NCBI GenBank assembly: GCA_016743995.1
Contig: JADGFG010000017.1
Coordinates: 1-32,000, forward strand
Source of the DNA: Kangiellaceae bacterium
GTDB taxonomy: Bacteria > Pseudomonadota > Gammaproteobacteria > Enterobacterales > Kangiellaceae
Reading direction: 5' to 3'
Length of the DNA: 32,000 bases
In this document: one piece after another, positions 13,447-32,000 of the stretch
Numbering within the stretch: the first letter of the stretch is position 1
Layout of the letters: every line of letters begins with the position of its first letter
Notes under the pieces: generated by a model
Told to the model about the DNA's origin: nothing
Databases searched by the model: none
The model's input: the letters and a program-made list of their open reading frames with translations, nothing else
Program-made: the position numbers and the translations under genes

Positions 13447-13498
13447 CCAAAGCTCACATTCTTAAAAAGATTGCGTATTTATTTTATAATTATGGTCG

Positions 13499-16219
13499 TT
13501 AGAACGACGCTCTAAAGCCTAATGCATATCGAGGTCCGGTTTCGATAACATCCAGTATATGGTTATCAAAAGTACCACGTTTAATAGTCGTCTCGTTCGT
13601 TACATTCAAGCCTTCAAAAAATACGGTGAAGTTATCATTAATATCATAACTTCCGCTAATATCTAACTGATAGTAATCATCAACCCAGACAGGCTCTCCG
13701 CTATAATAGTTTTCAGTTGACTGAACAAACTTGTCACGGTTGTTATAAGCAACACGGAACTGATAACTTTCCTGCTCATAAAACACGATAAGGTTTTGTG
13801 AATCGCCCAGACCAACAAGTGGTAACGGCTTTCCAGAATTAATCGTAGAAGACTCACTATCCACAAAAGTCATATTTGCAATAAAACCTAAACCGTTAAA
13901 CGGTTCTGGCAGACTATTGAAAACATGCTGAACCGCCAGTTCATAACCATCAATTTGAGCATCATCAGTATTTTTTGGACGAGTCATCGTATAATTATAT
14001 TGACCACTAGGCACTGTCAGTACTTCGTTATACAAACCATCATCAATAAAGTTATCAATATCTTTAGTAAATCCGCCAACTGCTGCATAACTGCCTTCGT
14101 CATAATACCATTCCAGAATCAAATCAAAATTGGTTGATTCATAAGGTTTCAGTTGTGGGTTTCCACCACTGCCTTTTAAGTCATCAACTTTTCCACCGCC
14201 ATAACTGGTTACCGGTGACATTTTCGACAAATCTGAACGAGTAATACTTTCAGAGTAGGCAAACCGCATCACTAACTCATCAGTAAACTCAATATTGGCG
14301 TTAATACTCGGCAAAACATCAGAGTAATCATAAGTCACTTCAACCGGAGAATAGGTATCCGAGGTTACCACTCTCACTTCATTGTTCGGTGCCGAGGTGA
14401 TATTGGTTACATACTGCTGTTGTCCACTGGAAAGATTTTCAGTTTCTACATATCGAACACCAGCAGTAACAGACCATGGCATTAAGCCCAGCTCACCTTC
14501 CAGTTGAAAATCAACATAAAAAGACTGTGTTTGTTCATTGATTTCATAAGCACTGTTATCTCTATGCGCGGAATAACCATTATGTTGCGCCAACAGAGCT
14601 CGCGCTGCGGCTGGATCAGCCAACTGATTGATTGCCGTATCACTTAACAGATAACTAAATAACTCTTCTGAGTTAAAAGCGAGCCACTGTTGTGCAGGGT
14701 TGCCGTGGGCTGCAGACAGGAATCCATCAGCATCATAGGTAGAAAACAGGCTCTGAGGTAAGTTGACATGATTCGGTTTATTATTACCGTACAGAACAGC
14801 AATATCACTTTCAGTCGAATAAGAAGTTTTTCCCAATGTTCGATCAGAATACATGGTACCAAATCCTATTTTGGCCAGTACACCACTATCAAACTTAAAC
14901 TCTCCATCCAGCTTAACTTCCAGAATTTCATCATTGATATCATCACCACCGCGAGCAGCCCACCCGGCATAAACACTATCCATATTGATACTGGTAGGAA
15001 AAGTCAACGCTGGCAGCAATTCACCGGCGGTGTTATCGAGGGTATATTCGTGCTGATAAGAGGCAACGGTATCAGTCACTTTACCGCCGTTCTCAGACTC
15101 TGCTTCTGAGTAGGCGATATCACCAAACAAGCTCAAGCTATCAGTCGCATCCCAGCTCACATTAAAACCATAAGCCTGAGTTTCTGTTGGCCGGTTTGAT
15201 ATTCGATTTAAAAAGTCAGTTTTACTATCTGCGCCTGCAGAAGTAAAACTGGTTACCGTTCTGTTGGCATCAATCGTAGCGTCGGTAATCGCGCCTGGTT
15301 CTATCCAGTGTGCAAGTACATTTTGTGTGTAATCAACTTCATACTTTGAATATAGTGCATCAACGGTCATAGTGACTTCTTCAACCGGCTGATACTGGAA
15401 TGAAACAGTTCCACCGGTACGCTTACGCGATTCTTCATGAGCGATCTGGTCATAGTTACGTGGTGGTTTAACATTCTCTAGCGTACTACCGTTCGCTAAA
15501 TTCAGAGTTTTACCCTGACGATAACCAGCAACCTCAGCATGATCATATTGACTTTCACGTTCACTATAGGCAATTGAAACCAGTGCACCCATTTTATTAT
15601 CTGCGAAAGTATTGCTAAGCAATCCGGAAAATTGCGGTTTAGTACTACCGGTCATGTGATCATAAAACGCTTTTGCACTACCGACTGCTTTAAAACCATT
15701 AATATCAAGTGGTCGCAAAGTAGTTACATTGATTGTTGCACCAATAGCACCTTCCGTTAAATTGGCTTTTTGAGTCTTATGAACTTCCGCGCCACTGATT
15801 AACTCAGAAGCTAGCGTGTCAAAGCTAAATGCTCGGCCACCACTAATTGTCGCCATGGTGCGACCATTCACTAATACTGAATTAAATTCTGGTCCTAATC
15901 CTCTGACAGAAACCAGTTGTCCTTCACCACCATTTCGATCAATGGCAACACCAGTGATACGTTGCAATGACTCAGCAACATTTTGGTCGGGGAATTTACC
16001 AATATCTTCAGACGAGATAGCATCAACAATGTTATCTGCATCTCTTTTCATATCCATTGAGCGTATTAAACTACCACGGATACCTGTAATCACAATTCGA
16101 GCTTCTTCATCTTCGTTGATATTCTGTTGTTTTGTATCTGCTGCAACAACTGAATTAACGACGCCCAGGTTGAGTAAGATTAGTGAAGATAAATAACCTA
16201 ACCTGAATTTGTTTACCAT
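13499..16219 (-). CDS. TonB-dependent outer-membrane receptor (probable oligosaccharide/galactoside importer)
   Basis: 906 aa. Signal peptide: MVNKFRLGYLSSLILLNLGVVNSVVAAD. Plug-like N-terminal region: IVITGIRGSL...VDAISSEDIGKFPDQNVAESLQRITGV. A long beta-barrel region follows, and the protein ends in the terminal aromatic motif ...GFRASF. GGAG lies upstream of the ATG. Confidence 0.9.
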   Translation of the reverse strand: MVNKFRLGYLSSLILLNLGVVNSVVAADTKQQNINEDEEARIVITGIRGSLIRSMDMKRDADNIVDAISSEDIGKFPDQNVAESLQRITGVAIDRNGGEGQLVSVRGLGPEFNSVLVNGRTMATISGGRAFSFDTLASELISGAEVHKTQKANLTEGAIGATINVTTLRPLDINGFKAVGSAKAFYDHMTGSTKPQFSGLLSNTFADNKMGALVSIAYSERESQYDHAEVAGYRQGKTLNLANGSTLENVKPPRNYDQIAHEESRKRTGGTVSFQYQPVEEVTMTVDALYSKYEVDYTQNVLAHWIEPGAITDATIDANRTVTSFTSAGADSKTDFLNRISNRPTETQAYGFNVSWDATDSLSLFGDIAYSEAESENGGKVTDTVASYQHEYTLDNTAGELLPALTFPTSINMDSVYAGWAARGGDDINDEILEVKLDGEFKFDSGVLAKIGFGTMYSDRTLGKTSYSTESDIAVLYGNNKPNHVNLPQSLFSTYDADGFLSAAHGNPAQQWLAFNSEELFSYLLSDTAINQLADPAAARALLAQHNGYSAHRDNSAYEINEQTQSFYVDFQLEGELGLMPWSVTAGVRYVETENLSSGQQQYVTNITSAPNNEVRVVTSDTYSPVEVTYDYSDVLPSINANIEFTDELVMRFAYSESITRSDLSKMSPVTSYGGGKVDDLKGSGGNPQLKPYESTNFDLILEWYYDEGSYAAVGGFTKDIDNFIDDGLYNEVLTVPSGQYNYTMTRPKNTDDAQIDGYELAVQHVFNSLPEPFNGLGFIANMTFVDSESSTINSGKPLPLVGLGDSQNLIVFYEQESYQFRVAYNNRDKFVQSTENYYSGEPVWVDDYYQLDISGSYDINDNFTVFFEGLNVTNETTIKRGTFDNHILDVIETGPRYALGFRASF

Positions 16220-16549
16220 AATATGTAATCTCCAAGGGATATTTCATTTATTATTTGATTAAAATTTTACCTAAAATGACTTTTAGATGTAAGCGGCGCC
16301 ATTTATACTATATATTATTAAAAAAACGCAGAAAAAATAATACAAATGCTTATACATGTGACGACGTTCATAATATTGTACAACAATAAAGTTATCGCGT
16401 AATCAATAACATAGGTTATAAAAACCCATTTACTAATCGCGTTATTGAGATAATGGGTGAAATTGGCATTATTTCTAAAAATTTTAGCCTGATTTTTAAC
16501 AAATCAGTTCTTAAACAAAAACAAACCAGTTAAATAGTATTTATATTAA

Positions 16550-19093
<2,544 letters not shown>

Positions 19094-19150
19094 AGGCAAC
19101 AAAATTAAAGCTTTTGCTTTTCTCCGATTATGACAACAACCAGTCATTTT

Positions 19151-19690
19151 CTAAAAGGTAGCTACGCTAACTCGACCAAACGGTAACGTTAGCGTACTGC
19201 CTTTTCTACAATAAGTCGATTCTGGATGCTTTTTCTGCATTAATTTAATCACCAGGCTTGCCTGACTGGCAGAAACATCCACCATAATCAGGAAATAACC
19301 TTGCTCTATTTTTTCGTGAAAAGGTTTTAATTGATAATTCTCGTTCTGATATCCCAGCAAACTGCCATGCCATCCGCCGACAATCACACCAAAAACCAAT
19401 ACGCCCAATAATAAGCTAAAAGAAGGTGTACTCCCATGAATGGGGATCTGAGACAACACTAATGCTGTCGCCAATCCTCCCACAATACCTTTCAGTACAC
19501 CACGCTCAGCACTATGAATAAAATCAGTTTTCTGCAGCAAATTAGCCAAATGAATATGTCGTTTGTAGAGTCCTTTTTCATGCTTACTAAGAACATGAAA
19601 ATTCCAGTCAGTTATTCCTGCATCATGTAAATCATTAGAAATAGAATCAGCACTTTCTATCTGTTGCGTTAAAAAATAAAGTCGTTTCAT
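19151..19690 (-). CDS. Hypothetical small membrane protein (two glycine-zipper-like TM helices between soluble N- and C-terminal segments)
   Basis: 179-aa ORF. Hydrophobic segments are GIVGGLATALVLSQIPI and LLLGVLVFGVIVGGWHGSLLGY. I recognise no catalytic motif. It has the same orientation as the upstream cluster but is separated from it by 249 nt. Confidence 0.55.
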   Translation of the reverse strand: MKRLYFLTQQIESADSISNDLHDAGITDWNFHVLSKHEKGLYKRHIHLANLLQKTDFIHSAERGVLKGIVGGLATALVLSQIPIHGSTPSFSLLLGVLVFGVIVGGWHGSLLGYQNENYQLKPFHEKIEQGYFLIMVDVSASQASLVIKLMQKKHPESTYCRKGSTLTLPFGRVSVATF

Positions 19691-19939: not shown

Positions 19940-20968
19940 TCAGGGAATCAGTAAATCAATTTTCTTTTTTCTGCCTTTGCGCCAGATAACAAGATGTAGA
20001 CGATCACCTGACTTAAGGCTCTTAATCGATTTCATCAACCTGTTCAGTGAACTTTTGCTATCAAAACGATTACCATCAATGCTCAGAATAATATCACCAC
20101 CAAGTATAAAGGGCTCATCCTCGATCATGGCGTGAATCGTTCCACCTTGTAAGCCAGCCTTAAATGCAAGCGAGCCAGAAGCCACCTTTTGTATCAGCGC
20201 TCCAGTATCCTGGGGTAGTTGAAATGCATCTGCCAACTCTGGTCCCATGGCAGATACCACCATCCCGGACCAGAAATGGCCACGACTTAATAAAAGCTCT
20301 TTTACCGTTTCACTAGTTACGGTAAAACCCAATCCTTCTGAGCCCCCGGAATGAGATTGAATATGCGACGCAATTCCAATAATTTCTCCAGCCATATTAA
20401 ATAGCGGACCACCCGAGTTTCCCGGATTAATTGCCGCATCAGTTTGAAAAAACTCTGCCATCGGTGCGGCGGGCCTTGAACCTACGGGATGTTTTCCGCT
20501 AATGTAACCAACAGTCAGAGTTTTAATCAAGCCTTGTGGTGCGCCTATCACAAAGACTTTCTCTCCAATCTGTACTTTGTTCGAATCTCCTAATTGAGCG
20601 GGCTTAACATTTTCGGGTAAAGCATCCACTTGAATCATCGCCAGATCGCCCCAGATAATTGATGATAAAACCTTCGCTTTTTTAAACTCACCGGTTTCAA
20701 ATTCCACCTGTAACGCATCTACGGTGTGAACAACATGAGAAGCGGTAATAATGATGCCATCATTGGAAATAATAACACCAGAGCCTAAACCATTTGGAGT
20801 GGTAACAACACGAGTAGTATTACCCATCACTTCATTTTCAAAGGTGTGTAAAGTAACCACACTTGGTAGCAATTTTTTATAAAGCGCAGGTAACGGGTTA
20901 TTTTCAAAAGCCTGGGTTAAAGAATGGTAAAATAGTCCGATAATCAGCAGGCCAATTTTTGTGTTCAT
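19940..20968 (-). CDS. Periplasmic S1C (HtrA/DegS-like) serine protease with a single C-terminal PDZ domain
   Basis: 342 aa. Signal peptide: MNTKIGLLIIGLFYHSLTQA. Catalytic triad context: ITASHVV (His), GDLAMIQV (Asp), GNSGGPLFN (Ser codon 20414-20416). The C-terminal PDZ-like region is ALIQKVASGSLAFKAGLQGG...GDIILSIDG. Confidence 0.88.
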   Translation of the reverse strand: MNTKIGLLIIGLFYHSLTQAFENNPLPALYKKLLPSVVTLHTFENEVMGNTTRVVTTPNGLGSGVIISNDGIIITASHVVHTVDALQVEFETGEFKKAKVLSSIIWGDLAMIQVDALPENVKPAQLGDSNKVQIGEKVFVIGAPQGLIKTLTVGYISGKHPVGSRPAAPMAEFFQTDAAINPGNSGGPLFNMAGEIIGIASHIQSHSGGSEGLGFTVTSETVKELLLSRGHFWSGMVVSAMGPELADAFQLPQDTGALIQKVASGSLAFKAGLQGGTIHAMIEDEPFILGGDIILSIDGNRFDSKSSLNRLMKSIKSLKSGDRLHLVIWRKGRKKKIDLLIP

Positions 20969-21025
20969 AGTTTTCTCTTGTTGTTTATTATTGTCTGTTC
21001 TTGTCGTTATAAATGATATCCGTTT

Positions 21026-21475
21026 TCAGGCTTTGTCTTTAGCCAGGATCTCTTTCTCATCGGTTAGTGCTGATACCGGCTTGTCGTAAAATATTGATAG
21101 AGAAATAATAATAAACATTGCCAGATGAACCGCATTAATGCCGTATTTTTGTGTGGTGATCGCATTTGACTCATACAAATTTACTATATGACTAATCACA
21201 TGATTTCCATTACAGCAACTCTCATTTTTTATTGCATCTATCTGATGATAAATGCTCCATAAAAACTGAGCCTGACTTTGCATCATTAAATTATTAATTG
21301 CCGCAAATCCACAATAGATAACAATGGCGACAATTTTCTCTTTTCTTGTCAAAGGCCGGTCTACGTAAATGATACCACCAATAAGTGCCAGATGTACGGT
21401 AATAAATAACGACCAGTGGGTATCCAGACGATTACTCAGCGATAATGCAAGATCCAGTAGTTCATAAGGTGTCAT
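21026..21475 (-). CDS. Hypothetical integral membrane protein (about 3 TM helices)
   Basis: 149-aa ORF with hydrophobic segments (LFITVHLALIGGIIYV, IVAIVIYCGFAAINNLMM, AVHLAMFIIISLSIF). I recognise no family. It starts 24 nt downstream of the preceding gene and ends 57 nt upstream of the protease gene. Confidence 0.55.
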   Translation of the reverse strand: MTPYELLDLALSLSNRLDTHWSLFITVHLALIGGIIYVDRPLTRKEKIVAIVIYCGFAAINNLMMQSQAQFLWSIYHQIDAIKNESCCNGNHVISHIVNLYESNAITTQKYGINAVHLAMFIIISLSIFYDKPVSALTDEKEILAKDKA

Positions 21476-21499
21476 CAGCAGACTCCAGATTTAGTCAAT

Positions 21500-21778
21500 C
21501 TATGTTATATGCTTATCAACTGCACTTTCCAATTCAGTTTGAATTTGCGTTTTTAATACTCGGTACATCAGTCCCAGTTTTACCGTAAGTTGAAACTCAT
21601 TTTCAGTGACACAGATCGTTCCGTTCGCCCCTTTTTTTTGAAAACCTAACTGTCTCTCAGACTCCCATTCATAACGAACACCCAGTTTATCTTTTAGTTT
21701 GACGGCTATATGCTCAATTCTATTTCTAATTTCATCAATTGATAAATGATGCGTTCTTTCTATTTTAATCATAGACAT
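21500..21778 (-). CDS. Small PHA_gran_rgn-like protein (family annotated as 'putative polyhydroxyalkanoic acid system protein')
   Basis: 92 aa. The pattern I.IER.H.L..DE.R..IE.IA.KL....GV.Y.W......F.K.GA.G...V.......V.LG.M........I..E.E.A..K matches my memory of this roughly 90-aa family. It starts 8 nt after the giant ATPase stop. Confidence 0.6.
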   Translation of the reverse strand: MSMIKIERTHHLSIDEIRNRIEHIAVKLKDKLGVRYEWESERQLGFQKKGANGTICVTENEFQLTVKLGLMYRVLKTQIQTELESAVDKHIT

Positions 21779-21786
21779 AAGTGTTA

Positions 21787-24700
21787 CTAACTCTCAGGGT
21801 CCTGCTTTGGTTGATGGGACGATTTCTTCTGCCTGCCAGGCTCGACTAATTTTGTCTGCCTGGAAATCAGCTCAAGCTTCTCATTAATATCCTGAATTTT
21901 CTGATGTGTTCCCAGGTCAAGGTCAAGCTTTCCATCCATTAGCCGGATCAACGGGTAAAAAGTTGTTTCAAAGACTTCCTTTATCTGGACCATTAACTGC
22001 TTACTCAGTTCCCCGGGCTCTTCATTATTTTGTAAATTATTATTCTGCTGTCCCCATTTATCAGCAAGATTTTCAATCGCCTCAACAATCAATGGCAGTG
22101 AATTTTTCTGGTCATTAACCGCTGACTTTACCGATTCCTTTTCATCAGCTACCAGCTGCCGACTGTCCCTCCAGCTACCAAGGGTAGACACCAGGTCATT
22201 TAACTGCCCTACAATCTGACGACCAGTATCCGCTTCATCGCCACCCATGGCTTTATTCCTGGTAAAATCCTTCTTAATTTCTTGCCAGCGTCGCTGTTTT
22301 TTCTCTGACAAGCAGCCTCTCATCTCGGCAAGCTTTAATAAATTGGCTTCTGCGCCGTTAGTTAAAAGCTGCGACTCTCCCTGATAATGGTCATCTACTA
22401 ACCGATTTAATTCTTCGTCTGTCATTATGGCCGAAACTTTTTCAGACATTTTATTCATGTTTCTATAGGAACCCTGCAACTTGAACGCGGGTTCAGTCCT
22501 ATACCGATCATCCTGTGCGCTAGATGCGATATACTGTTTGTTCACAGAAGATACCGTATGCTGAATAACTTTTAACTTCTGCAATATCGCCACAATTTCC
22601 TTTATTTCAGCGCCACTATACTGATGACTGAACTCTGTTGTAGCAACGGTTTTTCCCTCAGACATTTCAATGAATTTGTAAAAATCCTGCAAATCTCTGG
22701 TGGCTAACGGTGCCAGCACCTGATTAGACGTGAGAGAATTTTCCAGATAACTCAAGTCAAAAATTGCTTCCTTTCCACCCAGCACATCACCCAGATTATA
22801 AACATCGGCACGATTAGCTAGCATATCGGGAATTTGAAAAACTTCGCCGGTTTCTGTATACGGATTTCCAGCCATAACAACACAGAATTTTTTACCGCGC
22901 ATATCATAAGTTTTTGTACGCCCTTTCCAGATCCCCTCAATTCTACGAGTACCATCACATAGCGATATAAATTTTTGCAAAAACTCACTATTTGTATGCT
23001 GAATATCATCCAGATACAACATGACATTATTACCCATTTCAAGTGCCAGGTTCAGCTTTTCCAGCTCTTGTTTTGATGCACTATTATCTGCCTGCTGCGG
23101 GTCAACTGATGTGACAGAATGCCCAATAACAGGACAATTTATTTTCATAAAAATCAGTCCCAGCCGGTCCGCAACATATTCCATCAAGGTTGTTTTTCCG
23201 TAACCGGGTGGAGATATCATTAATAATAACCCCATTAAATCAGTTCGCTTTTTCGCACCAGCGGTTCCAATCTGTTTTGCCAGATTATCACCTATCAAAG
23301 ACAGATAAACTTCGTTAATCAGACGATTTCGTACAAATGAAGCCAATGGCTTTGCTTTAAACTCGCTAATTCTTAGCGTTTCTCGTTGTTCGCTGATAAA
23401 AAGCTGTCTGACTGACAGGTAGTTCTCAAAAGCTGGGACGACTTCTCTGGCATGGTATTGATTAGCTCGTAAAAATTCATCGAGCTGAACAATAAGGGCC
23501 TGACCTTTTAAACGCGAATGTTCTCCAATCAAACCTTCAATCTTTAACTGAATATCCACTTCCCTGTCAGTTCTGCTGATTCGTTGCTCTGAGTTTAAAA
23601 TACCAATTGCCTCACCAACAAAACTGATATATTCATTTTTATTTTGTGAATTGATGTAGGCCCTGATCCATTTTTCAGCAATGGACCATCGTTTTCCAAT
23701 CTGTCCCTTAATATCATCAAGAGATCGCTGATAATCACGCCAGACAACTTTTGACTCCAGATAAACTTTAAAATCTTCACATAATCGGCGAGCATATTTA
23801 GAAGTCGAAAAACTGATTATATCTTGCGATAACTCCTCTGATAAATATTCACTGGCACTGACTATAACGTGCTCTTTAATTTCCATCTTATTTTCAATAA
23901 CAAACTCAGACATATCCTGTCTGATTTCATCTGCTAAAAGTTTTTTTGCACTCGAATCAAAAAAGACCTCTGACATTTTCGCTGAAGTTTTTGCTCTAAG
24001 TTGCCAGAGTTCCTGGATATTACCCTGCTGACGATTAGCCCAGTAAACCGTTGCAAAACCTCTGGCCAGCGGAGAAAATTTAAATACGCCAGCCAGCTCA
24101 TAAACCGGTACCAGCTTTTTTAATATGAGCGCCGCATCATGGTCATGAATGCCTTTTTCATAACCTTCACGATATCTTGGCGCTGCATAATCAACAACTA
24201 ACCGATTAAGTAGTCGACTATCAGCAACAGCGTCTATCAATTGACGCCAGCTTAAACCGTCCTGATTACCTTGCGCCGCATTGATAATATTATAGGCCAG
24301 ATACTCTGAACGATAAATTGATGTGGACTCAGAAGGAAGCAACATATTCCAGTAGTCTTTATATTGCAAAAGCCGCTTATCGTTAACCGTTTCAGTATAA
24401 TCAGTACCCGACAATCGAATCGTTAACGCTTCATCTCTGGGCAGAATGGTCAGGTCAAGCTCTTGTCTGTTCACTGAAAATTTATGCCTTGGACCTAATT
24501 TAATGACCTGCCCATCATCTTCATAAAGATCACTTTTGTCTCTTAATGCTCTTAATGATTGTTCTTTAATTGCTTTTAAGCGTGCATCCAGATCTTCTGA
24601 CTTAACACTATCATCAAGTTCCTTCAGATGAACAATAATCTCACGAACTTTATTAATTAACGGGTCTGCCGCAAAGAAAGTATTCAGCTCATCTTGTTCG

Positions 24701-27114
24701 GAAAAACGTTTCACTCTTTTTTCAATACTTTGCAAAATTCGGCTGCCAGCATCATCCAGAGATTGTGCTTTCCTTTGTCTTGCCTCAATTAAAGATTGTT
24801 TATGCTCTTCAAAAGTTTCAAATATTTCTTCTCTTTTATTAATAATATCGCTGATAAAATCATCATAATCACTGAACTCACCTTCTAACTCATCCAACTG
24901 AACTAAAAGCCTTGAAACTTGTTCGTCACATTTATCAGGCGTAGCAGACAATCCCAACGCATTATGAATACTCTGATTAAGCAACTTTAACCTGGCAGAA
25001 AACTGAGCCGTTGCTTCGGATTTTCCCATGTTCTTTTTTTGATGTTCCAGTTTTGCACGCTGCTGATTTAACCTGGCATATAACTCAGACACCTCATCAA
25101 CAATCCTGGTTTGCAATGTCGCATCTTCAACTTTTAACATGGTCATCACTTCAGAGATTAAATCCATTCCCTGTGACATACTGGACAATGCTTCCAGATA
25201 CTGTTTTAAATCCAGGTTGGTTTTACATTGACTACTTTCAGATTCAACACGCTCCAGCTCTTTGTAGTAACTTTTTAACGCTGATTCAGAGGCCAGAAAT
25301 TCAACAGTTTTTTGATTAAGTAGTTCTTCTTCCTTCTGTATTTCCTGATCAAGCGTTTCAATTTCCGCTATATCGATATATCGATATTCCTTAATCGTTA
25401 ATAAATGACCTCGATGTTTTCTTATTCGGCTTAATGCATCAACAAATTCCTGGGGAGTATGCCAGCTATCAGGCTCAATCAAACGAATTATTTCTCGCTG
25501 AGTTGCTTTTGATTCTGTTAAAGCTTTTGAAGACTGATTACGAATGCTCTCAACTTTTTCGTATTCATCGATTACTGATTCAGCGGTCTGTGCAATTTTT
25601 TTAATCAGCTTTGAAGTATCACTCAGCTCGGTTGAATCCAGCCAGAAATAGCTATCAAAAATTTTCTCGCAGGATTGACTCAGTTGATGATAATGTTTTG
25701 CAGACACATCGTTTGTAGAAATATTTTTTGATATATCATAGAGTTCAGAAATTCCCCTCACCAGATCCGCATTACCAATTTTTCCATAAAAACTTTGTGA
25801 AGCTGGCTGTGAGCTTGCATACAGATCAGAAAAATAAGGGGTTTGCCATATTTGTATGGGGTGCACTCGAGCCGGCTCTTCATCAGCATAAAACAAAATC
25901 ATACGTCCATCTTCATAGAAACCAAAGCCATGGCCAAAAAGTGGGTTCTGTAATGTTTTTTCAATAATGTTATACGGATAGAAAGCAACAACATTTGTTT
26001 CTGGTTGATAAAACAGGTACAAAACATCTTCGCCATTGGGGGAACGCATTGTTCGTTTATAAACAAGTCCCTCCAGCTCATCATCAAAAGATTTATACTC
26101 GCCACTCGTCAGATAGTAGCCACCCGGAAAAATAATACCATGGCCTTCTGGCAATTGAACACAGGCATCGCCAATGGCATCAATTCTTACAACAGTTTCC
26201 GTCATACGATTGAAAATGAGATAGCGGTATTTTTCTTCCTGATAGGGTTTAATCTTTAACAAAACCAATTGTTCTAAATCAGCATAATAAAACTCCGCAT
26301 CATCAATCGACTGATTACTTTCCTCAACAGATTCGGAATAGATCCCTTTACCAACATTGGTATTATTTTCAATTTTAATGGTGATATCGCCACGTAACGT
26401 ATCAACAAAAAGTGTATCCAGTATATTAATATGAGGGTTTCGACCATCGATAACATCGTCGCGCTGACATTGAGTCCATTCAAAATCATGACTGGCCGGT
26501 AAACGAATATCTCTTTCTCCACGATTATCGATATAATCTATTCGCTTACCATCTGAGGAAACCTCCCAACGAAAAACTCTGATATCCGTCAGCTTTCTTC
26601 CTGTTTGAAAAGATGCCAGTAATCGGCCGTCTTTTAAAACCAACTGAGAAAGTGAAGTATCCTTATAATAAGCATAGAGCTCCTGAAAGTCCGTATGAAA
26701 ACGTGAATCGGACAGAAACGAGTCTTCTAACGCAACCGAATGCAATTCATATTGGCCTTCGCTTTCTTTCAACTGATAGAGTGATAAGACATCTGTCAGT
26801 TTCGTTTCTTTTTTCAGACCAATGTAAACATTGTAACCAAACAGAACATAATCGCCGACAATCACCAGATCCTGAGCCTGACAGTTATTTTCTGTTCGCA
26901 GACGCATTCTACCGAGAACTTCCATCTCGGTATTACCAAACTCCTGTCGTCGCGCTGTATTTAATTCACTAGTTAACTCATTCAGCAAACTGCCCTGTTC
27001 AGATAAACGCTGGCAGATAATTTCATAAGCACCGCCTTCAGCGACTGCTTTTTCCACAATTGAATTTTTTTCTGTCTGTTCTGTCACGTTAAAGTCCCTG
27101 AAGAAGATCGACAC
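21787..27114 (-). CDS. Giant (about 1775 aa) single-AAA+ protein: beta-rich N-terminal region, long helical/coiled-coil middle, MoxR/dynein-like (AAA_5-type) ATPase module, helical C-terminal tail
   Basis: Uninterrupted 5.3-kb ORF. Walker A MISPPGYGKTT is encoded at 23188-23220 (P-loop 23188-23214). Walker B VMLYLDDIQH is at 22996-23025. This is followed by FCVVMAGNPYTETGEVFQIPDMLANRADVYNLGD, a MoxR/midasin-like NP...G...P..L.NR block. I found no second P-loop. Residues about 60-450 are rich in short beta-like segments with aromatic/Gly turns. Residues about 450-1290 are E/K/Q/L-rich heptad-like sequence. The start is uncertain: the GTG at 27114 lacks an SD, while the in-frame GTG at 27087 is preceded by AGGGA. 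Confidence 0.8.
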   Translation of the reverse strand: MSIFFRDFNVTEQTEKNSIVEKAVAEGGAYEIICQRLSEQGSLLNELTSELNTARRQEFGNTEMEVLGRMRLRTENNCQAQDLVIVGDYVLFGYNVYIGLKKETKLTDVLSLYQLKESEGQYELHSVALEDSFLSDSRFHTDFQELYAYYKDTSLSQLVLKDGRLLASFQTGRKLTDIRVFRWEVSSDGKRIDYIDNRGERDIRLPASHDFEWTQCQRDDVIDGRNPHINILDTLFVDTLRGDITIKIENNTNVGKGIYSESVEESNQSIDDAEFYYADLEQLVLLKIKPYQEEKYRYLIFNRMTETVVRIDAIGDACVQLPEGHGIIFPGGYYLTSGEYKSFDDELEGLVYKRTMRSPNGEDVLYLFYQPETNVVAFYPYNIIEKTLQNPLFGHGFGFYEDGRMILFYADEEPARVHPIQIWQTPYFSDLYASSQPASQSFYGKIGNADLVRGISELYDISKNISTNDVSAKHYHQLSQSCEKIFDSYFWLDSTELSDTSKLIKKIAQTAESVIDEYEKVESIRNQSSKALTESKATQREIIRLIEPDSWHTPQEFVDALSRIRKHRGHLLTIKEYRYIDIAEIETLDQEIQKEEELLNQKTVEFLASESALKSYYKELERVESESSQCKTNLDLKQYLEALSSMSQGMDLISEVMTMLKVEDATLQTRIVDEVSELYARLNQQRAKLEHQKKNMGKSEATAQFSARLKLLNQSIHNALGLSATPDKCDEQVSRLLVQLDELEGEFSDYDDFISDIINKREEIFETFEEHKQSLIEARQRKAQSLDDAGSRILQSIEKRVKRFSEQDELNTFFAADPLINKVREIIVHLKELDDSVKSEDLDARLKAIKEQSLRALRDKSDLYEDDGQVIKLGPRHKFSVNRQELDLTILPRDEALTIRLSGTDYTETVNDKRLLQYKDYWNMLLPSESTSIYRSEYLAYNIINAAQGNQDGLSWRQLIDAVADSRLLNRLVVDYAAPRYREGYEKGIHDHDAALILKKLVPVYELAGVFKFSPLARGFATVYWANRQQGNIQELWQLRAKTSAKMSEVFFDSSAKKLLADEIRQDMSEFVIENKMEIKEHVIVSASEYLSEELSQDIISFSTSKYARRLCEDFKVYLESKVVWRDYQRSLDDIKGQIGKRWSIAEKWIRAYINSQNKNEYISFVGEAIGILNSEQRISRTDREVDIQLKIEGLIGEHSRLKGQALIVQLDEFLRANQYHAREVVPAFENYLSVRQLFISEQRETLRISEFKAKPLASFVRNRLINEVYLSLIGDNLAKQIGTAGAKKRTDLMGLLLMISPPGYGKTTLMEYVADRLGLIFMKINCPVIGHSVTSVDPQQADNSASKQELEKLNLALEMGNNVMLYLDDIQHTNSEFLQKFISLCDGTRRIEGIWKGRTKTYDMRGKKFCVVMAGNPYTETGEVFQIPDMLANRADVYNLGDVLGGKEAIFDLSYLENSLTSNQVLAPLATRDLQDFYKFIEMSEGKTVATTEFSHQYSGAEIKEIVAILQKLKVIQHTVSSVNKQYIASSAQDDRYRTEPAFKLQGSYRNMNKMSEKVSAIMTDEELNRLVDDHYQGESQLLTNGAEANLLKLAEMRGCLSEKKQRRWQEIKKDFTRNKAMGGDEADTGRQIVGQLNDLVSTLGSWRDSRQLVADEKESVKSAVNDQKNSLPLIVEAIENLADKWGQQNNNLQNNEEPGELSKQLMVQIKEVFETTFYPLIRLMDGKLDLDLGTHQKIQDINEKLELISRQTKLVEPGRQKKSSHQPKQDPES

Positions 27115-27182
27115 AAGATAAGCGGCACAATATTATTAACACAATATAATCCACATAACTTAAAGGCTGAATTAAACGAACA

Positions 27183-27226
27183 GATCAGCAAAATAGTCTC
27201 TTAAAATTTATTCTATTTCACTGATC
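27183..27226 (-). other. Imperfect 14-bp-arm hairpin between the flotillin and giant ATPase genes (possible partial terminator / RNA processing or stability element)
   Basis: gatcagcaaaatag (27183-27196) pairs with ctatttcactgatc (27213-27226). That is 12 of 14 pairs with a central 2x2 mismatch and a 16-nt AT-rich loop. It lies 19 nt downstream of the flotillin stop. Only a weak T-tract follows on the minus strand. Confidence 0.4.
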
Positions 27227-27244
27227 CGCAAACGAATAAGTACT

Positions 27245-29290
27245 TTATGCTTCGTCTTTATCGGCGTTAGAAATTGTTTTAGGCGCAGATTTATCTCCAC
27301 CCAACAGTTTCTCCATCAGCGCCTGAACAACCGGACTCTTTTCAATAAAACCACTGACCGCGTTTCCTGCCCCCATGCCTTTCGCCAGTTTATCGAAATA
27401 ATCTCCTTGTCCAGTGACAATATCAACATTCGCACTCTTAAGTGCTGAGGCAAGGACTTCCGCCTGATCACCAGATATTTCTTTATTCGCTTCTATAGAA
27501 GCAAGCACTTCTTTCAGGTTATATTCAAGGTTCAGTTTAAATTCTTCAAAACTACGGGATTCTTTATCCATATTATTCATTGCTGCAAATTTGTCGACTA
27601 ACGCATCCGCTTCAGCTTTACCTTTTTCTCGAAGAACCTCCGCTTCATTCACGCCTTTTTCTTTAATCGCTGTCGCCTCAGCAATACCTTGTTCTTGTGT
27701 TACATGCGCTTTGCTAAGACCAATTTCTTTTTCTGCGACCGCTTCAGCTCTTGCCATTTCTTCATTACCGCGCGCTTCAGCCGTCAATTTTTCTTCTAAG
27801 ACTTTTGCTTCGGCCAATCCTTCTTTTTCCAGGGATACCGCTTTAGCTTCTTGTACTCTTGCCTCAGCAATGCCTTCTTTTTCAAACGCGTCGGCTTTTG
27901 CTTCCATCACTCGGGCTTGTGCAATACCTTCTGCCGCATCAGTTGCCTGTTGACCTTCTGCAATTTTCTTATCTGCTTCTGCTTTTTTAGTCGCCGCTTC
28001 AAGATCTGCCTGAGCGAGTACGTTTATTTCACGAGCCCTGAATTGCGCTTTTTGTTCATCAGCTTCTGCACGTTTAACCGTTTGCACCAGCTCTTCCTGA
28101 GCTAAAGCTTCGGCCCCTAGAACAACCACCTGCTTCTTTCGATCAGCTTCTGAAACTTCCTTAACTTCCTTAATTCTCTCTTCTTCTTCAGCAACTTTCT
28201 TTTCTACCGCAATACGCTCACTGATCGTTTGTGCAATAATCTTCTTTTCTTCTTCAAGTGCTTTGTCTTTATCAATGATCGAAAGCTCAACTTCTCTTTC
28301 TCTGTTCACTTCTTCCATTTCTTTTGCGCGAATCACCCTTTCTTTTTCAATAACGACAGCGCGTTCTCTGTTTTGCTCTGCAATTTCAATCTGGCGTAAT
28401 TTGACCTGATCTCTAATCTCAAGTTGTTCTTCGGTTTCAATTCTTGCCTGTTCATATTTCAGCCTTTCTTCTTCCTGTACTTTTTTTGTTTCAGCTTCTT
28501 CTCTTGCCCTGACCGTCTCAATTTCTCTTTTCTGCTTTGATTCTGCATCTATCTGCTGTCTTTCCAGCGATAACATTGACTCGCGAGTTTCCACATTTTT
28601 CTTAGTGATCGCCAGAGACTCATCTTTTTCAAGACGATTAGTTTCAATATTTTGCGTCGCAGTAATTTCGGTTATTTTTCGAATACCAACAGAATCCAGA
28701 ATGTTAGTCGGGTCAAGTTGTGCTTTCGGTGTTTGTTCCAGATAATCAATGGCGACATCTTCCAGAATATAGCCATTCAAATCGTCTCCAATCACTTCAA
28801 TAATTTTTTCCCTGAACTGAATTCTGTTTTCAAAAAGATCCAGAAACAACATGTTTTTACCCACCGTTTTTAGTGCTTCTGAAAATTTTGCGTTAAACAG
28901 TTCGTTAACAGCAATTTTGTCAGATGCGCGGTCGACACCAATTGACTTGGCCACCCGGAGTACGTCATCACGGGTTTCATTCACTCTTAAATAAAATGCA
29001 ACGGTAATATCTGCCCGAAGGTTATCTTCACAGATAAGCCCATCATTTCCGCGACGATCAATTTCCAGTGTAATCAGAGAGATTTTCATCACTTCCATTT
29101 TATGAATGACCGGTATTACCATGCCGCCGGTAAAATGAACTTTGGGTTTGGCTGACATGTCATTAACAATGAGCGCATATCCCTGAGGTACCTTTTTATA
29201 GAAAGCGCTAAACATAAACGCGATCCCCATAATAATTACCAGTATAATTCCGCCAGTTGTAATTATTGGCATTAAAATTCCGCTATCCAT
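27245..29290 (-). CDS. yqiK: Flotillin-family SPFH/Band-7 protein (YqiK-like)
   Basis: 681 aa. The N-terminal TM helix is PIITTGGIILVIIMGIAFMFSAF. An SPFH-like region follows (VPQGYALIVN...GGMVIPVIHK...LRADITVAFYLRV), then a very long E/A/K/R-rich coiled coil with periodic repeats. This is the architecture of E. coli YqiK and bacterial flotillins. GGAG lies 9 nt upstream of the ATG. Confidence 0.88.
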   Translation of the reverse strand: MDSGILMPIITTGGIILVIIMGIAFMFSAFYKKVPQGYALIVNDMSAKPKVHFTGGMVIPVIHKMEVMKISLITLEIDRRGNDGLICEDNLRADITVAFYLRVNETRDDVLRVAKSIGVDRASDKIAVNELFNAKFSEALKTVGKNMLFLDLFENRIQFREKIIEVIGDDLNGYILEDVAIDYLEQTPKAQLDPTNILDSVGIRKITEITATQNIETNRLEKDESLAITKKNVETRESMLSLERQQIDAESKQKREIETVRAREEAETKKVQEEERLKYEQARIETEEQLEIRDQVKLRQIEIAEQNRERAVVIEKERVIRAKEMEEVNREREVELSIIDKDKALEEEKKIIAQTISERIAVEKKVAEEEERIKEVKEVSEADRKKQVVVLGAEALAQEELVQTVKRAEADEQKAQFRAREINVLAQADLEAATKKAEADKKIAEGQQATDAAEGIAQARVMEAKADAFEKEGIAEARVQEAKAVSLEKEGLAEAKVLEEKLTAEARGNEEMARAEAVAEKEIGLSKAHVTQEQGIAEATAIKEKGVNEAEVLREKGKAEADALVDKFAAMNNMDKESRSFEEFKLNLEYNLKEVLASIEANKEISGDQAEVLASALKSANVDIVTGQGDYFDKLAKGMGAGNAVSGFIEKSPVVQALMEKLLGGDKSAPKTISNADKDEA

Positions 29291-29447
29291 TTATCTGTGC
29301 TCCGGTTTATTAAAATTAATTTTGATTGGTCTTTCTTATTTTGTTTGAAGTTTAGTAATACGTCTTAATGCCTGTTTTATTCCTGCCAGAAACAGATTTT
29401 CCTGATTGCCAGGCTACTCTGGTGGCCTGATTACTCTAATTGCCCGG

Positions 29448-30098
29448 TTATTCCAGTTGCTGATTAAATTCTTTTTCACTGACAATCTGATAAGTCCTAT
29501 CAACCTGATGTTCAATAATCACCGCAGTATCTCCTGCCTTATAGGTATCATTTTTACCATGAGTTCTAACTTTAACAATAAGACTGGCACCATGATGCAA
29601 ACATTCAGCCTCTCCAAATGCTTTATCGACTCGACTGCTTCTGATTTTGCAGGTTCGGCCTATCAGCGATTTTGATACTGGTTCACGGTTGATCGTCTTA
29701 AAAAGACCTTTCGTTGGTTTAATCATGACCGCAGTCAGCGGGATCGCAATTAGAAAACTCACAATCGCAATGCCCAGCTCAATCGCCAGTTGCAATAAAG
29801 AAATAAGATCAGGGAACTCAGGAAGAAGTAAGCTCATAAAATAGCAGATAAGCCAGCTATTCAACACTAACAGGCTAATAACGAGGGTAACGGGGACGCC
29901 AGTGAGGCCCAGTGTGACTAATAATCCAACAATGCCGCCCAGCTGACTGACATCGGTATCCACGTCAATATCCAGGTCAAACATATCAAAGTCAAATAGT
30001 CCCAGCATAACCATAAACCAGTAACCCACCACAACAACCAGTGCGGTACTATAAATGGCAGTAGGAAAACTGCTAATATTCAGTAGAAAAGTATCCAT
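29448..30098 (-). CDS. yqiJ: YqiJ/NfeD-like inner-membrane protein (short NfeD form: TM helices plus C-terminal OB-fold-like domain, no protease domain)
   Basis: The track ORF starts at a TTG (30107). I prefer the ATG at 30098 (MDTFLLN...). The protein has multiple TM helices and an acidic loop (DFDMFDLDIDVDTD). Its C-terminus LIGRTCKIRSS.VDKAFGEAECLHHGASLIVKVRT....YKAGDTAVIIEH resembles the NfeD OB-fold. It sits immediately upstream of the flotillin gene, as in E. coli yqiJK. Confidence 0.7.
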   Translation of the reverse strand: MDTFLLNISSFPTAIYSTALVVVVGYWFMVMLGLFDFDMFDLDIDVDTDVSQLGGIVGLLVTLGLTGVPVTLVISLLVLNSWLICYFMSLLLPEFPDLISLLQLAIELGIAIVSFLIAIPLTAVMIKPTKGLFKTINREPVSKSLIGRTCKIRSSRVDKAFGEAECLHHGASLIVKVRTHGKNDTYKAGDTAVIIEHQVDRTYQIVSEKEFNQQLE

Positions 30099-30132
30099 TA
30101 TAAACAAGCCCTGTTATCTATTTTTCATTATT

Positions 30133-30693
30133 TTATTTCTTTGTTTTTCGTTGTCTTTTTCGCACAAGCAATCTGGCCGTAACGATACCAGAAGCAAAGC
30201 CAAAGATATGACCTTCAAAGCTTACCCAGGAACGAAAGTCCAGTAAACTGAAAGCTAATCCACCATAAAGAAAAACCGTCACCAGTGCCAGAATAATGTT
30301 CTTAATATTCCGGTTAAAATAAGCCCAGCCCAACAAAAAACCAAAATACCCCATGACAAGTCCAGAGGCACCCACATGAAAAGCGCTTCTGGCAAATATC
30401 CAGACCATTATTCCGGTCAACAACATAATGGCAAGCGTAGCTTCTTTGCCTTTATTGGTAGCACACACCAGAAAACCCAATACAATCAGAGGGATAGTGT
30501 TTGCAATCAAATGATAAAGACCACCATGCAAAAAATGCATCGTCACAACGCCGTAAAGATGACCAAGGTCTCTGGGTAATAAACCATATTGGTTGAGATT
30601 ATGGTTAAGCGCAATATTAATCAATTCTATTAACCAGATTAATACAACAAAAGCCAACAACAGCTTAAAGTCTTTAATGGATTGACTGTTCAA
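30133..30693 (-). CDS. Rhomboid-family intramembrane serine protease
   Basis: 186 aa with about 6 TM helices. It carries the TM2 HxxxN motif (YHLIAN), the catalytic GxSG (HVGASGLVMGY; Ser codon 30364-30366) and the TM6 His (EGHIFGFASG). It has a TTG start preceded by AAGGA, overlapping the upstream gene stop by 4 nt (TTGA). Confidence 0.85.
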   Translation of the reverse strand: MNSQSIKDFKLLLAFVVLIWLIELINIALNHNLNQYGLLPRDLGHLYGVVTMHFLHGGLYHLIANTIPLIVLGFLVCATNKGKEATLAIMLLTGIMVWIFARSAFHVGASGLVMGYFGFLLGWAYFNRNIKNIILALVTVFLYGGLAFSLLDFRSWVSFEGHIFGFASGIVTARLLVRKRQRKTKK

Positions 30694-31022
30694 ATTGAGT
30701 CCTTTTTCATTACCAGATTAATTATCTCTTTAGCGGCCCTCTCTTTTATCGCGAGTTTATCATTCCTGTCAAGCCCATATTGCTGGGCCAGAATAATATA
30801 ATCGTCGGCAGATAGCGAAATCGTTAACCTGGGTCTGATTGGTTTTTTACTCGGCAACCCCAGAATCTGGCGCATTTGATCAGAAGGCGACAAATCATTA
30901 TTAATCGCCAACAGTTTTAATTGTTTTTGAGCCTCAGTAGAAATATCAAAAGCAACCTGAGTTGCCTTGATAGCTTTTTTTTCTTCACTCCACAACTCTG
31001 GCTTTTTTTTGTCTGTGCCCAT
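30690..31022 (-). CDS. Small soluble protein of unknown function; possible tandem ribbon-helix-helix (RHH) DNA-binding protein
   Basis: 110-aa ORF. Its start overlaps the yjfJ-like stop by 1 nt (TAATG) and its stop overlaps the rhomboid start. Two segments show a strand-helix-helix pattern: TQVAFDISTEAQKQLKLLAINNDLSPSDQMRQILGL and PRLTISLSADDYIILAQQYGLDRNDKLAIKERAAKEII. The fold assignment is inference only. Confidence 0.6.
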   Translation of the reverse strand: MGTDKKKPELWSEEKKAIKATQVAFDISTEAQKQLKLLAINNDLSPSDQMRQILGLPSKKPIRPRLTISLSADDYIILAQQYGLDRNDKLAIKERAAKEIINLVMKKDSI

Positions 31023-31717
31023 TATTGATAAGTGCTATTTTTTAATCGCTGCAATACATCTGCAGCAGTATGCTTTTCTTTAATAATTCCAGCTGTTTTC
31101 AGCTTTTCGTCAAGCGAATCGTCTTGCATTTCTTTTTGCAACTGAACGCCCGCATCAAACTTGTCCTGCTCTTTTTGTTGCTTTTGCTTTATCCGTTCTA
31201 ATGACTCTCTTGCGGTACCAATAGATGACTGATTCATTGTTACCGATTGCGTCACTGACTGCGTAGCTTGCTGAACCGATTCTCTGGTTTTCACCATAAG
31301 TAGCTCTCTCTCATGCTCGGCAATGGTCTTGTCTGCACGTTTTATTTCACCTTTCAACAAAGTAATCTGTTGTTCATAAGTGAGCGCTTCCTGCTTCAGC
31401 TCATTATTTTCTATCTCCAGTTTAGCCACCTTATCAGCAATTTCCAGCGCCAGCGCCTCATCTTTCTTCTCCAGTGCTTTTAGCGCATAAGATTCGTTCT
31501 CACTGATATCTTCTTTCAGCTGGTTAAGCTTTCTGTCTACCGCCATTTTTCTGGCAACTATTTCAGTTAACCCTTCTTTTGCTTCAGCAACACCATTTTT
31601 TGAATCTCTGATTTCCTGCTCAAAAATGCGCATTGACTGGGTATCAACTACCGCTTCACCCAGCTCTCTGGCACCACCACGAATCGCGGTTAATAATTTT
31701 TCAACAATGTTAGTCAT
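31022..31717 (-). CDS. yjfJ: PspA/IM30-family protein of the YjfJ subgroup
   Basis: 231 aa, all-helical coiled coil. It is collinear with remembered E. coli YjfJ: MRIFEQEIRDSK vs MLEQHIRDAK; ARESLERIKQKQQKEQDKFDAGVQLQK...LDEKLKTAGI...AADVLQRL vs AAESLKRLQTRQAERQARLDAAAQLEK...LDEKLAEAGI...AQDVLARL. GAGGA lies 8 nt upstream of the ATG. Confidence 0.88.
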   Translation of the reverse strand: MTNIVEKLLTAIRGGARELGEAVVDTQSMRIFEQEIRDSKNGVAEAKEGLTEIVARKMAVDRKLNQLKEDISENESYALKALEKKDEALALEIADKVAKLEIENNELKQEALTYEQQITLLKGEIKRADKTIAEHERELLMVKTRESVQQATQSVTQSVTMNQSSIGTARESLERIKQKQQKEQDKFDAGVQLQKEMQDDSLDEKLKTAGIIKEKHTAADVLQRLKNSTYQ

Positions 31718-31728
31718 AATATAATCCT

Positions 31729-32000
31729 CTATTTAATAAATTCTTCAAGCGCCTGTAAAGTTTCAATTGAGTTGGTTGCCAACGCAATTAACTCCTGAGT
31801 AATGCTTTCAAATTTTGAACCACAACTTAATGCGCCAAAAATAACATAATGCTCATCAACCAGTGCAAAAGAGCTAAGTGGCATCGGCACATTAAGCTCT
31901 AGCAGGTACCGATTAAGTTCTGCTTCTTTTTCAGTCACTATTTCCTGTTGAGTGAAAAGATAAGAAATACATAAAATCTGCGTTGAAGTGACAGTCACAA
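31729..32000 (-). CDS. yjfI: YjfI-like DUF2170 protein (CesT/Tir-chaperone-like fold proposed for this family); N-terminus lies beyond the window edge
   Basis: The C-terminal 89 aa are visible: NRYLLELNVPMPLSSFALVDEHYVIFGALSCGSKFESITQELIALATNSIETLQALEEF. This aligns with remembered E. coli YjfI: NTFLLRNQKIMPLSSVGISSV..EEYYIVFGALSLKSSLEDILLEITSLVDNALDLAEITEEY. It ends 11 nt upstream of yjfJ. The GTG at 31998 in the track is probably internal. Confidence 0.75.
   Translation of the reverse strand, partial: VTVTSTQILCISYLFTQQEIVTEKEAELNRYLLELNVPMPLSSFALVDEHYVIFGALSCGSKFESITQELIALATNSIETLQALEEFIK

Follow-up and report, generated by a model that had tools for sequence, protein, structure and literature searches.

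The window analysed here, a stretch of 32,000 nucleotides (nt), opens contig JADGFG010000017.1 of a Kangiellaceae bacterium (assembly GCA_016743995.1), and its subject is a run of 10 successive minus-strand open reading frames (ORFs) that extends from 19940 to the window end. These encode a YjfI, a PspA, a small protein p110, a rhomboid protease, a YqiJ-like membrane protein, a flotillin, a giant AAA+ protein, a PHA_gran_rgn protein, a membrane protein TM149 and an HtrA-type protease. Computed from the coordinates in the 5' to 3' direction, the spacing is 11 nt, a 1-nt overlap, a 4-nt overlap, 25 nt, 157 nt, 130 nt, 8 nt, 24 nt and 57 nt, where the gap between the rhomboid gene and yqiJ is 25 nt with a TTG start at 30107 or 34 nt with the ATG start at 30098 of the public gene call. 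An 11th co-directional ORF (19151-19690) follows 249 nt after the HtrA gene. An earlier interpretation made from the letters, hereafter the sequence-only reading, had described the ten co-directional genes with exactly these spacings. Domain calls were made with Pfam and NCBIfam, and E. coli K-12 yqiJK, yjfIJ and pspA were compared directly; the DUF2170, PspA_IM30, rhomboid, AAA+, PHA_gran_rgn and HtrA/PDZ identities given by that reading were confirmed by the two domain libraries.

The first gene, yjfI (31729 to 32000; listed ORF 31729-31998+), runs off the window, which holds its 3' two-thirds. The upstream DNA was supplied by the source contig (L081), which agrees with the window base for base between 32000 and 14341 and on which the full gene (L081 754-1161) encodes 135 amino acids (aa) and starts 136 nt past the window end. 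Its product, of the CesT/Tir-like BacA family, matches Pfam DUF2170 with 79.6 bits, is 32% identical to E. coli YjfI (E=6e-12) and scores 36 bits, under the cut-off, against the NCBIfam BacA model. The second gene (31022 to 31717) encodes a PspA/IM30 protein of 231 aa (PspA_IM30, 112 bits) that had rightly been assigned to the YjfJ type, since BLASTP gave 35% identity and E=6e-28 to E. coli YjfJ as against E=0.06 to E. coli PspA.

Upstream of the ATPase gene lie the genes for a YqiJ/YuaF-like membrane protein (29448 to 30107, 219 aa), hydrophobic in its N-terminal half and taken to be a divergent NfeD2-type flotillin partner, and for a YqiK-like flotillin of the BacD family (27245 to 29290, 681 aa) with an N-terminal transmembrane (TM) segment, an SPFH domain and a long coiled coil. 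Neither protein, nor p110, gave a Pfam match even at E<10, and neither gave a PDB sequence match with single sequences or orthologue profiles. The flotillin and YqiJ/NfeD-like calls of the sequence-only reading were established instead by direct comparison: the flotillin aligns with E. coli YqiK by BLASTP (E=4e-39, 27% identity over the TM, SPFH and coiled-coil regions) and by hhalign (99.9%), and the 219-aa family aligns with E. coli YqiJ by hhalign (93%, E=2.5e-7). The YqiJ-like protein matches neither NfeD nor YqiJ_OB in Pfam, and its link to the OB fold runs through the E. coli YqiJ homology and through a paper in which flotillin-type SPFH proteins have YqiJ/YuaF as their divergent NfeD partners (PMC2636767). 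E. coli YqiK matches Band_7 and Flot, and E. coli YqiJ matches YqiJ_N and YqiJ_OB, whereas the flotillin and YqiJ homologues of the P. paraeruginosa operon are missed by Pfam like those of the window. Because of this difference, the window pair is assigned, from sequence comparison, to a divergent operon-linked subfamily. Band_7, Flot, YqiJ_N and YqiJ_OB miss this subfamily, and therefore automated domain-based neighbourhood surveys under-count the system.

The giant AAA+ protein of the BacE family (21787 to 27114) has 1775 aa, or 1766 aa in the public gene call, which starts 9 codons later. It carries DUF3686 at residues 44-490 (640 bits), DUF7902 at 612-694, a long helical region and a single AAA+ module at about 1280-1450 (Pfam AAA_5/AAA); its propeller fold is taken from PMC11237479. 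More than 5348 homologues were found at E<=1e-10, the nearest named ones in Aliikangiella (Kangiellaceae, about 70% identity), and the BacE homologue of P. paraeruginosa shares 52% identity with the protein. Invariant positions of the protein are Walker A (GYGKTT, 1304-1309), Walker B (D1369-D1370), N1417 and R1435. In an AlphaFold2 (AF2) model of residues 1230-1775 (pLDDT 67.5, core 75-90), a beta-hairpin between helix 3 and strand 4 corresponds to the pre-sensor-1 hairpin, and Foldseek matched the module to NorQ and CbbQ of the MoxR family, RuvB and MCM (E ~1e-3, probability 0.99). All of the 50 best Foldseek matches were to NorQ, CbbQ, RuvB and MCM, with no Vps4 or other classic-clade protein among them. 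Pfam detected no MIT domain, and neither Pfam nor NCBIfam a peptidase domain; the PDB sequence and profile search found no related solved structure, with a RuvB P-loop match at E ~0.05 at best. The module, as modeled, resembles MoxR/NorQ and RuvB, not Vps4. The Vps4-type analogy drawn by the sequence-only reading thus fails at the family level, given the pre-sensor-1 hairpin and the best structural matches, and may hold functionally.

Downstream of the ATPase gene, a 92-aa protein (21500 to 21778) belongs to the PHA_gran_rgn family (Pfam PF09650, 81.4 bits, cut-off 26.6; TIGR02610, 63.2 bits, cut-off 40.25), and its gene is the last conserved operon gene in the clade. TM149 (21026 to 21475) shows three hydrophobic segments, which bears out its earlier naming as a 149-aa membrane protein, and is a 3-TM protein encoded by the first gene of a separate TM149-HtrA module. 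The second product of the module (19940 to 20968, 342 aa) is a single-PDZ HtrA/DegS-like periplasmic serine protease with matches to Trypsin_2 (101.7 bits), PDZ_2 (32 bits) and TIGR02037 (227 bits), whose catalytic residues are intact. The 11th ORF encodes p179, a 179-aa hypothetical protein with no family match above threshold, which lies in neither conserved unit. No terminator-like hairpins were found in the operon intergenic gaps, an indirect sign of co-transcription.

A pattern scan over one genome per species, seeded on the ATPase, gave 80 loci, all from Gammaproteobacteria except one metagenome-assembled genome labelled Zetaproteobacteria. The window proteins, together with representatives of unlabelled neighbours that recurred, served as queries against the ORFs of these loci, and the linkage counts, which take only loci with enough flank, are not corrected for phylogeny. 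YqiJ and flotillin immediately precede the ATPase in 70/71 loci, PspA is upstream in 51/68 and YjfI likewise in 51/68, so that the enrichment of the giant ATPase beside flotillin, YqiJ and PspA foreseen by the sequence-only reading is found in other genomes. A rhomboid occurs anywhere near the ATPase in 35/64 loci and p110 upstream of it in 6/68. Downstream of the ATPase, the survey found a PLD protein (25/69), a Zn-ribbon protein of about 180 aa (20/69), an SF1 helicase (7 loci) and Peptidase_M90 (2 loci). The PHA_gran_rgn protein follows in 7/69 loci and in the nearest relatives L083 and L084, which makes it a genuine if lineage-specific member; its gene starts 1-156 nt after the ATPase gene in Kangiellaceae and Psychromonas loci and in L083 and L084. 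In these two closest relatives (70-72% identity) the order is DUF2170-PspA-p110-rhomboid-YqiJ-flotillin-ATPase-PHA_gran_rgn, with divergence straight after, and the order of the first eight window genes recurs in other genomes.

Several other families were met in these neighbourhoods. The unannotated s80 family (about 80 aa) was seen at 15 loci upstream and 9 downstream of the ATPase, placed after PspA, between flotillin and ATPase, or downstream (~24/80 loci; L083 7580-7822; L013 17182-17418); it has no copy in the window and no similarity to PHA_gran_rgn. The Zn-ribbon protein has TFIIB-type zinc ribbons and is a frequent distal operon member (L013 16618-17151; L003 15606-16160) with no window copy, its gene standing directly after PHA_gran_rgn in Kangiellaceae relatives. 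At several Pseudomonas and Motilimonas loci the PLD gene is followed by one for an SF1 helicase of about 905 aa, abutting or overlapping in most (L040 15811-19211; L028, L037, L048, L049, L076, L078), and PADLOC matched the PLD protein with DrmC/MkoB and the helicase with MkoA/MkoC, which makes the pair Mokosh-like.

The core of this arrangement is already known. An operon class of YjfI (CesT/Tir) and YjfJ-type PspA with YqiJ/YuaF, flotillin and a beta-propeller/coiled-coil AAA+ protein was described by Ravi et al. 2024 (PMC11237479), in agreement with what the sequence-only reading said of such surveys, and a PLD protein was also reported in the operon in some Proteobacteria. In the same paper, the spermine-synthase YjfI-PspA class ends with a gene for an RHH (ribbon-helix-helix) transcription factor. 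Contrary to the earlier statement that no experimental characterisation was known, bacABCDEF of P. aeruginosa is this system (PMC10948618, PMC2587700). In strain PA14, RT-PCR products were obtained over every junction of bacABCDEF (Wallart et al. 2024, PMC10948618), a sigma-54 promoter was proposed, BacB through BacF accumulated 6- to 13-fold in a bacA mutant, and BacA was considered a negative controller. The crystal structure of BacA and phenotypes in biofilm, rhamnolipid and virulence were also reported (PMC10948618), some of the phenotypes earlier (PMC2587700). BacF is taken to be the PLD protein because the gene directly after the ATPase in P. paraeruginosa (L038) encodes an HKD/PLD protein. 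The eight window genes are a Kangiellaceae variant of this published operon family, and the PHA_gran_rgn accessory in the operon looks new. A literature search on DUF3686 found no paper; an eLife paper on Arc, in which PA3729 was only pull-down background, was set aside as irrelevant.

The third gene (30690 to 31022) encodes p110, a small RHH-like protein with no Pfam domain, whose family counts 138 proteins in 5.8 billion, none annotated. Its AF2 model (pLDDT 78) consists of four helices after extended segments, with no strands; the local Foldseek matches, of about 1 Å root-mean-square deviation over ~37 residues, are nearly all RHH proteins (Arc, CopG, FitA, NikA, PutA, ORF56, AvtR, single-chain Arc), at whole-model E>1. 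Upstream of yjfI lie two perfect palindromes, GACATAATATGTC and GACATATTATGTC, both within L081 685-740 and with their starts separated by 30 bp. The hexamer TTGACA is overlapped by the first, TAAGCT follows 18 nt on, and the second lies between TAAGCT and the ribosome-binding site; the candidate promoter falls about 160-200 nt past the window end. This layout of TTGACA, TAnnnT and palindrome is conserved across loci, and the flanks are not. A sigma-70-like yjfI promoter is inferred from this cross-species conservation; a simple sigma-70 scan did not call it because the -10 element TAAGCT fits 3/6 positions only. On the source contig, the stretch from -330 to +260 around yjfI has no sigma-54 -24/-12 match (GG-N10-GC).

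The exact GACATAWTATGTC motif was found 23 times in the 1.88 Mb of survey loci plus window, each time directly upstream of the first operon gene. Palindromes are present in 11/11 testable p110 loci (L003, L007, L034, L041, L050, L080, L081, L083, L084, plus L090 and L091), which span at least 4 lineages and two operon classes, and there are none in 72/74 loci without p110. In L039, yjfI-pspA and yqiJ-flotillin-ATPase are divergent and each half carries a palindrome pair; the contig ends inside pspA and no p110 was seen. An independent test was made with the loci of distant p110 homologues (~45% identity). L091 holds the same operon type with two perfect palindromes before yjfI. L090 holds the DUF350/spermine-synthase YjfI-PspA class with two perfect palindromes directly before yjfI and a p110 homologue as the last class gene, the very position of the RHH factor described by Ravi et al. 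(PMC11237479). The co-occurrence with the palindromes and the local structural matches suggest that p110 is probably an autorepressor of YjfI-PspA operons that acts via GACATAWTATGTC palindromes. The p110/operator module in this operon class looks new, and the GACATAWTATGTC cis element with its candidate repressor provides a handle for finding the inducing signal.

Two forms of YjfI were noted among the loci, one of about 135 aa that goes with p110 and the palindromes and a BacA-like one of about 205-235 aa where both are absent; E. coli YjfI is also short (133 aa). Upstream of the yjfI promoter, beside a small divergent ORF, a 27-bp perfect inverted-repeat pair (L081 64-90 and 301-327, past the window end at a window-equivalent of ~32563-32826) flanks about 210 bp in the manner of a miniature inverted-repeat transposable element. 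Between the small ORF and the promoter, a perfect 12-bp hairpin, GACAGGGTTGTC-loop-GACAACCCTGTC, lies at L081 ~482-513 (window-equivalent ~32377-32408), overlapped by a sigma-70-like site on the opposite strand.

The short rhomboid intramembrane serine protease (30133 to 30693, 186 aa) matches Pfam Rhomboid with 66.7 bits (cut-off 22.6). The TM2 residues H56, H61 and N65, the TM4 motif G108-x-S110-G111 and the TM6 histidine H162 do not vary among the 14 sequences aligned, GlpG being one of them, by which the window enzyme is predicted to be catalytically intact. It is of an operon-linked subfamily: BLASTP gave 38% identity and E=2e-26 to the Pseudomonas operon-linked rhomboid and E=0.25 to E. 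coli GlpG. As the sequence-only reading had supposed, the rhomboid is a genuine recurrent member, found in 35/51 loci that contain PspA and in 0/13 that lack it (Fisher p=5e-6, uncorrected for phylogeny). Among the 35 loci it stands directly after the ATPase in 31, often with a 4-nt overlap, before yqiJ in L001 and L041 (a placement shared by the window, L083 and L084), and divergently upstream in L017 and L030; in the window it has moved upstream from the usual place after the ATPase. This linkage outlasts changes of position and orientation and therefore argues, at the level of gene order, for a functional coupling of the rhomboid to the operon. To our knowledge, few natural substrates have been identified for bacterial rhomboids, and the linkage gives that field a short list of candidates. 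The rhomboid linkage is absent from the text of Ravi et al., and no paper in the library searched combines rhomboid, flotillin, PspA and operon, so that the linkage looks new.

How far the system extends along the ten genes can be judged from two opposite proposals. If all ten, TM149 and HtrA included, formed one integrated membrane-proteostasis system, the co-directional order, the 24- and 57-nt gaps and the lack of a predicted terminator between PHA_gran_rgn, TM149 and HtrA would be explained, and a distal protease is found at other loci too, as rhomboid or as Peptidase_M90 (2 loci). Against this, HtrA, TM149 and p179 were found downstream of the ATPase in 0/69 loci with sufficient downstream flank, HtrA and TM149 thus being absent from 69/69, and these two are also absent at the operon of the closest relatives L083 and L084. 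Furthermore, in a related genome an HtrA orthologue (P0248, 62% identity) and the ATPase homologue P0004 share a 1.99-Mb contig but stand about 590 kb apart, and P0248 has a TM149 orthologue (76% identity, E=3e-59) directly upstream and DUF3313 and RND efflux genes after; a Colwellia genome has the same TM149-HtrA pair followed by DUF3313/RND genes (TM149 orthologue 64% identity). Because of the 0/69 count, the absence from the nearest relatives and the orthologue pairs elsewhere, TM149-HtrA is, as judged from gene neighbourhoods, an independent two-gene envelope module only juxtaposed to the operon here, and a ten-gene system is quite improbable. The integrated membrane system of the sequence-only reading therefore stands for the eight genes from yjfI to PHA_gran_rgn and not for TM149 and HtrA. 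At the other extreme, independent yjfIJ-like, yqiJK-like and ATPase operons might have come together by chance with no joint function; internal promoters might lie in the 157- and 130-nt gaps, the yjfIJ and yqiJK dyads are separate in E. coli, and 13 loci have abbreviated YqiJ-flotillin-ATPase operons without PspA. This is scarcely credible, given that the order is kept in 51/68 loci over many genera, that all six bac genes of P. aeruginosa are transcribed together and their protein levels regulated jointly (PMC10948618), and that both split halves in L039 carry the same operator pair.

Two further proposals concern the regulator and the purpose of the ATPase. Another regulator could bind the GACATAWTATGTC palindromes, with p110 acting, for example, as an adaptor or partner of PspA/YjfI; the fold assignment of p110 is statistically weak, L001 has palindromes and no p110 nearby, and BacA/YjfI was itself proposed as a negative controller (PMC10948618). 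Such a regulator is unlikely, considering the presence of palindromes in every testable p110 locus against their absence from 72 of the 74 others, the local structural matches of p110 almost only to RHH DNA-binding proteins, and the RHH factor that ends the spermine-synthase class of Ravi et al. in the place of the p110 homologue in L090. A nucleic-acid-directed conflict or defence system, centred on the ATPase with the membrane proteins as sensors or effectors, would fit the database name "DNA repair ATPase", the Nuc/DrmC/MkoB-like PLD (25/69 loci) and Mokosh-like SF1 helicase (7 loci) after the ATPase elsewhere, and RuvB and MCM among its structural matches. PADLOC gave no match for the giant ATPase, the flotillin or p110, nor a defence model for PHA_gran_rgn, TM149 or p179, and its HtrA matches were to the generic trypsin domain. 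Besides, the window lacks both PLD and helicase, the constant partners are membrane-scaffold proteins, the P. aeruginosa phenotypes concern biofilm, rhamnolipid and virulence (PMC10948618), and the top structural matches of the ATPase are MoxR-type NorQ/CbbQ; a defence role is hardly to be expected.

The arrangement that accounts best for these data, and one held with good though not full confidence on the strength of the gene neighbourhoods, is that the region consists of two units, the eight-gene operon as a bac-type variant (Unit 1, 21500 to past the window end) and TM149-HtrA (Unit 2, 19940-21475). Several observations weigh against parts of it. No terminator-like hairpin separates PHA_gran_rgn, TM149 and HtrA across their short gaps, and a Unit 1 transcript may possibly read through into TM149-HtrA, with some local functional coupling; such read-through would not by itself make the pair part of the system. 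The supporting survey is limited to Gammaproteobacteria and takes no account of phylogeny. For the ATPase, the confidence of the AAA+ model is moderate (pLDDT 67.5), the matches are marginal (E ~1e-3) and Walker B reads DD, not DE. For p110, the RHH assignment is weak (Foldseek E>1, strandless AF2 model), its N and C halves have no similarity detectable by hhalign, and Aliikangiella marina (L001) carries the palindromes without a p110 within 25 kb.

PspA is a membrane remodeller of the ESCRT-III fold, and a working of the two-unit arrangement can be proposed from the protein families. The YqiK-like flotillin and YqiJ would build a scaffold at the cytoplasmic face of the inner membrane. YjfI, as a CesT/Tir-like chaperone, would hold or deliver the YjfJ-type PspA polymer, which then could seal or remodel stressed membrane at the flotillin/YqiJ scaffold. 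The giant MoxR/RuvB-like ATPase would power assembly or disassembly, docked by its propeller and coiled coil, while the rhomboid may serve as an accessory intramembrane protease, most likely on a membrane-anchored component or client. Expression would start from the sigma-70-like promoter, with its -35 element TTGACA inside one GACATAWTATGTC palindrome and the start region under the second, at which p110 probably represses. A rearrangement would have placed TM149-HtrA downstream of Unit 1.

Outside these units, positions 1-19100 of the window form a carbohydrate-utilisation neighbourhood, with a glycoside hydrolase family 2 (GH2) beta-galactosidase (10074-13235, plus strand) and a YgjK/trehalase-like glycoside hydrolase (16553-19093, plus strand). 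A TonB-dependent receptor (13499-16219, minus strand) is an intact 906-aa ORF in the window; compared with the ENA copy of this contig, the window carries 4 additional bases (ACTT) at position 14340, and in the ENA version the receptor is two genes of 647 and 256 aa. A weak terminator-like hairpin lies at 19024-19012 after the p179 gene, and an Rfam scan of the whole window matched no family.

The published core system brings a bacterial ESCRT-III protein together with a flotillin scaffold and a 200-kDa ATPase, and it affects biofilm and virulence of P. aeruginosa. Excluding HtrA and TM149 from it prevents an over-reading of the cluster.

The closest known relative is bacABCDEF of P. aeruginosa (PA3732 onward, PA14_16140-16200; Mace 2008, Wallart 2024), in which DUF2170 BacA, PspA-like BacB, YqiJ-like BacC, flotillin-like BacD and the DUF3686 AAA+ protein BacE stand in the same order; the P. 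paraeruginosa locus L038 matches all five families from BacA to BacE. BacF, a PLD/HKD protein optional in the family (25/69), has no counterpart in the window, whereas the window adds p110, a mid-operon rhomboid and PHA_gran_rgn, has a short YjfI of 135 aa against about 206 aa, and shows a sigma-70-like promoter with palindromic operators in place of the proposed sigma-54 site. The text on the class of Ravi et al. (PMC11237479) includes neither rhomboid, PHA_gran_rgn nor operator, and gives the RHH factor only for the spermine-synthase class. E. coli K-12 yjfIJ(KLMC) and yqiJK are homologous dyads (YjfI 32%, YjfJ 35% and YqiK 27% identity, YqiJ by profile), but they are separate loci, as had been stated, without giant ATPase, rhomboid or p110. 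NfeD-stomatin operons such as Pyrococcus PH1510/PH1511, and YuaF-YuaG (FloT), likewise pair an SPFH protein with an NfeD-type membrane/OB-fold partner, and long NfeD forms couple a protease to the SPFH protein (PMC2636767); the window YqiJ is without a protease domain of the ClpP-like kind, and the system is linked to a separate protease, the rhomboid.

With the ESCRT-III/Vps4 and PspA/PspF pairings the window shares an ESCRT-III-fold polymer, PspA, encoded together with an AAA+ protein capable, in principle, of remodelling it. Unlike Vps4, this AAA+ protein has a pre-sensor-1 hairpin and no MIT domain found by Pfam, and unlike PspF it is not a sigma-54 activator. The mitochondrial SLP2-PARL-YME1L (SPY) complex brings a scaffold of the SPFH family, a protease of the rhomboid family and an AAA+ enzyme together at a single membrane. 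Its AAA+ component differs from that of the window, which is without a peptidase domain and not FtsH/YME1L-like, and PspA and YjfI have no SPY counterpart; the likeness is that the window links SPFH, rhomboid and AAA+ genetically. A tentative extension of this comparison, possible rather than probable, is that the rhomboid is the dedicated protease of a PspA-flotillin-AAA+ repair machine, acting on flotillin, YqiJ or a client, and that a new RHH/GACATAWTATGTC module, which travels with YjfI-PspA dyads, switches the unit, which would make it a prokaryotic counterpart of SPY.

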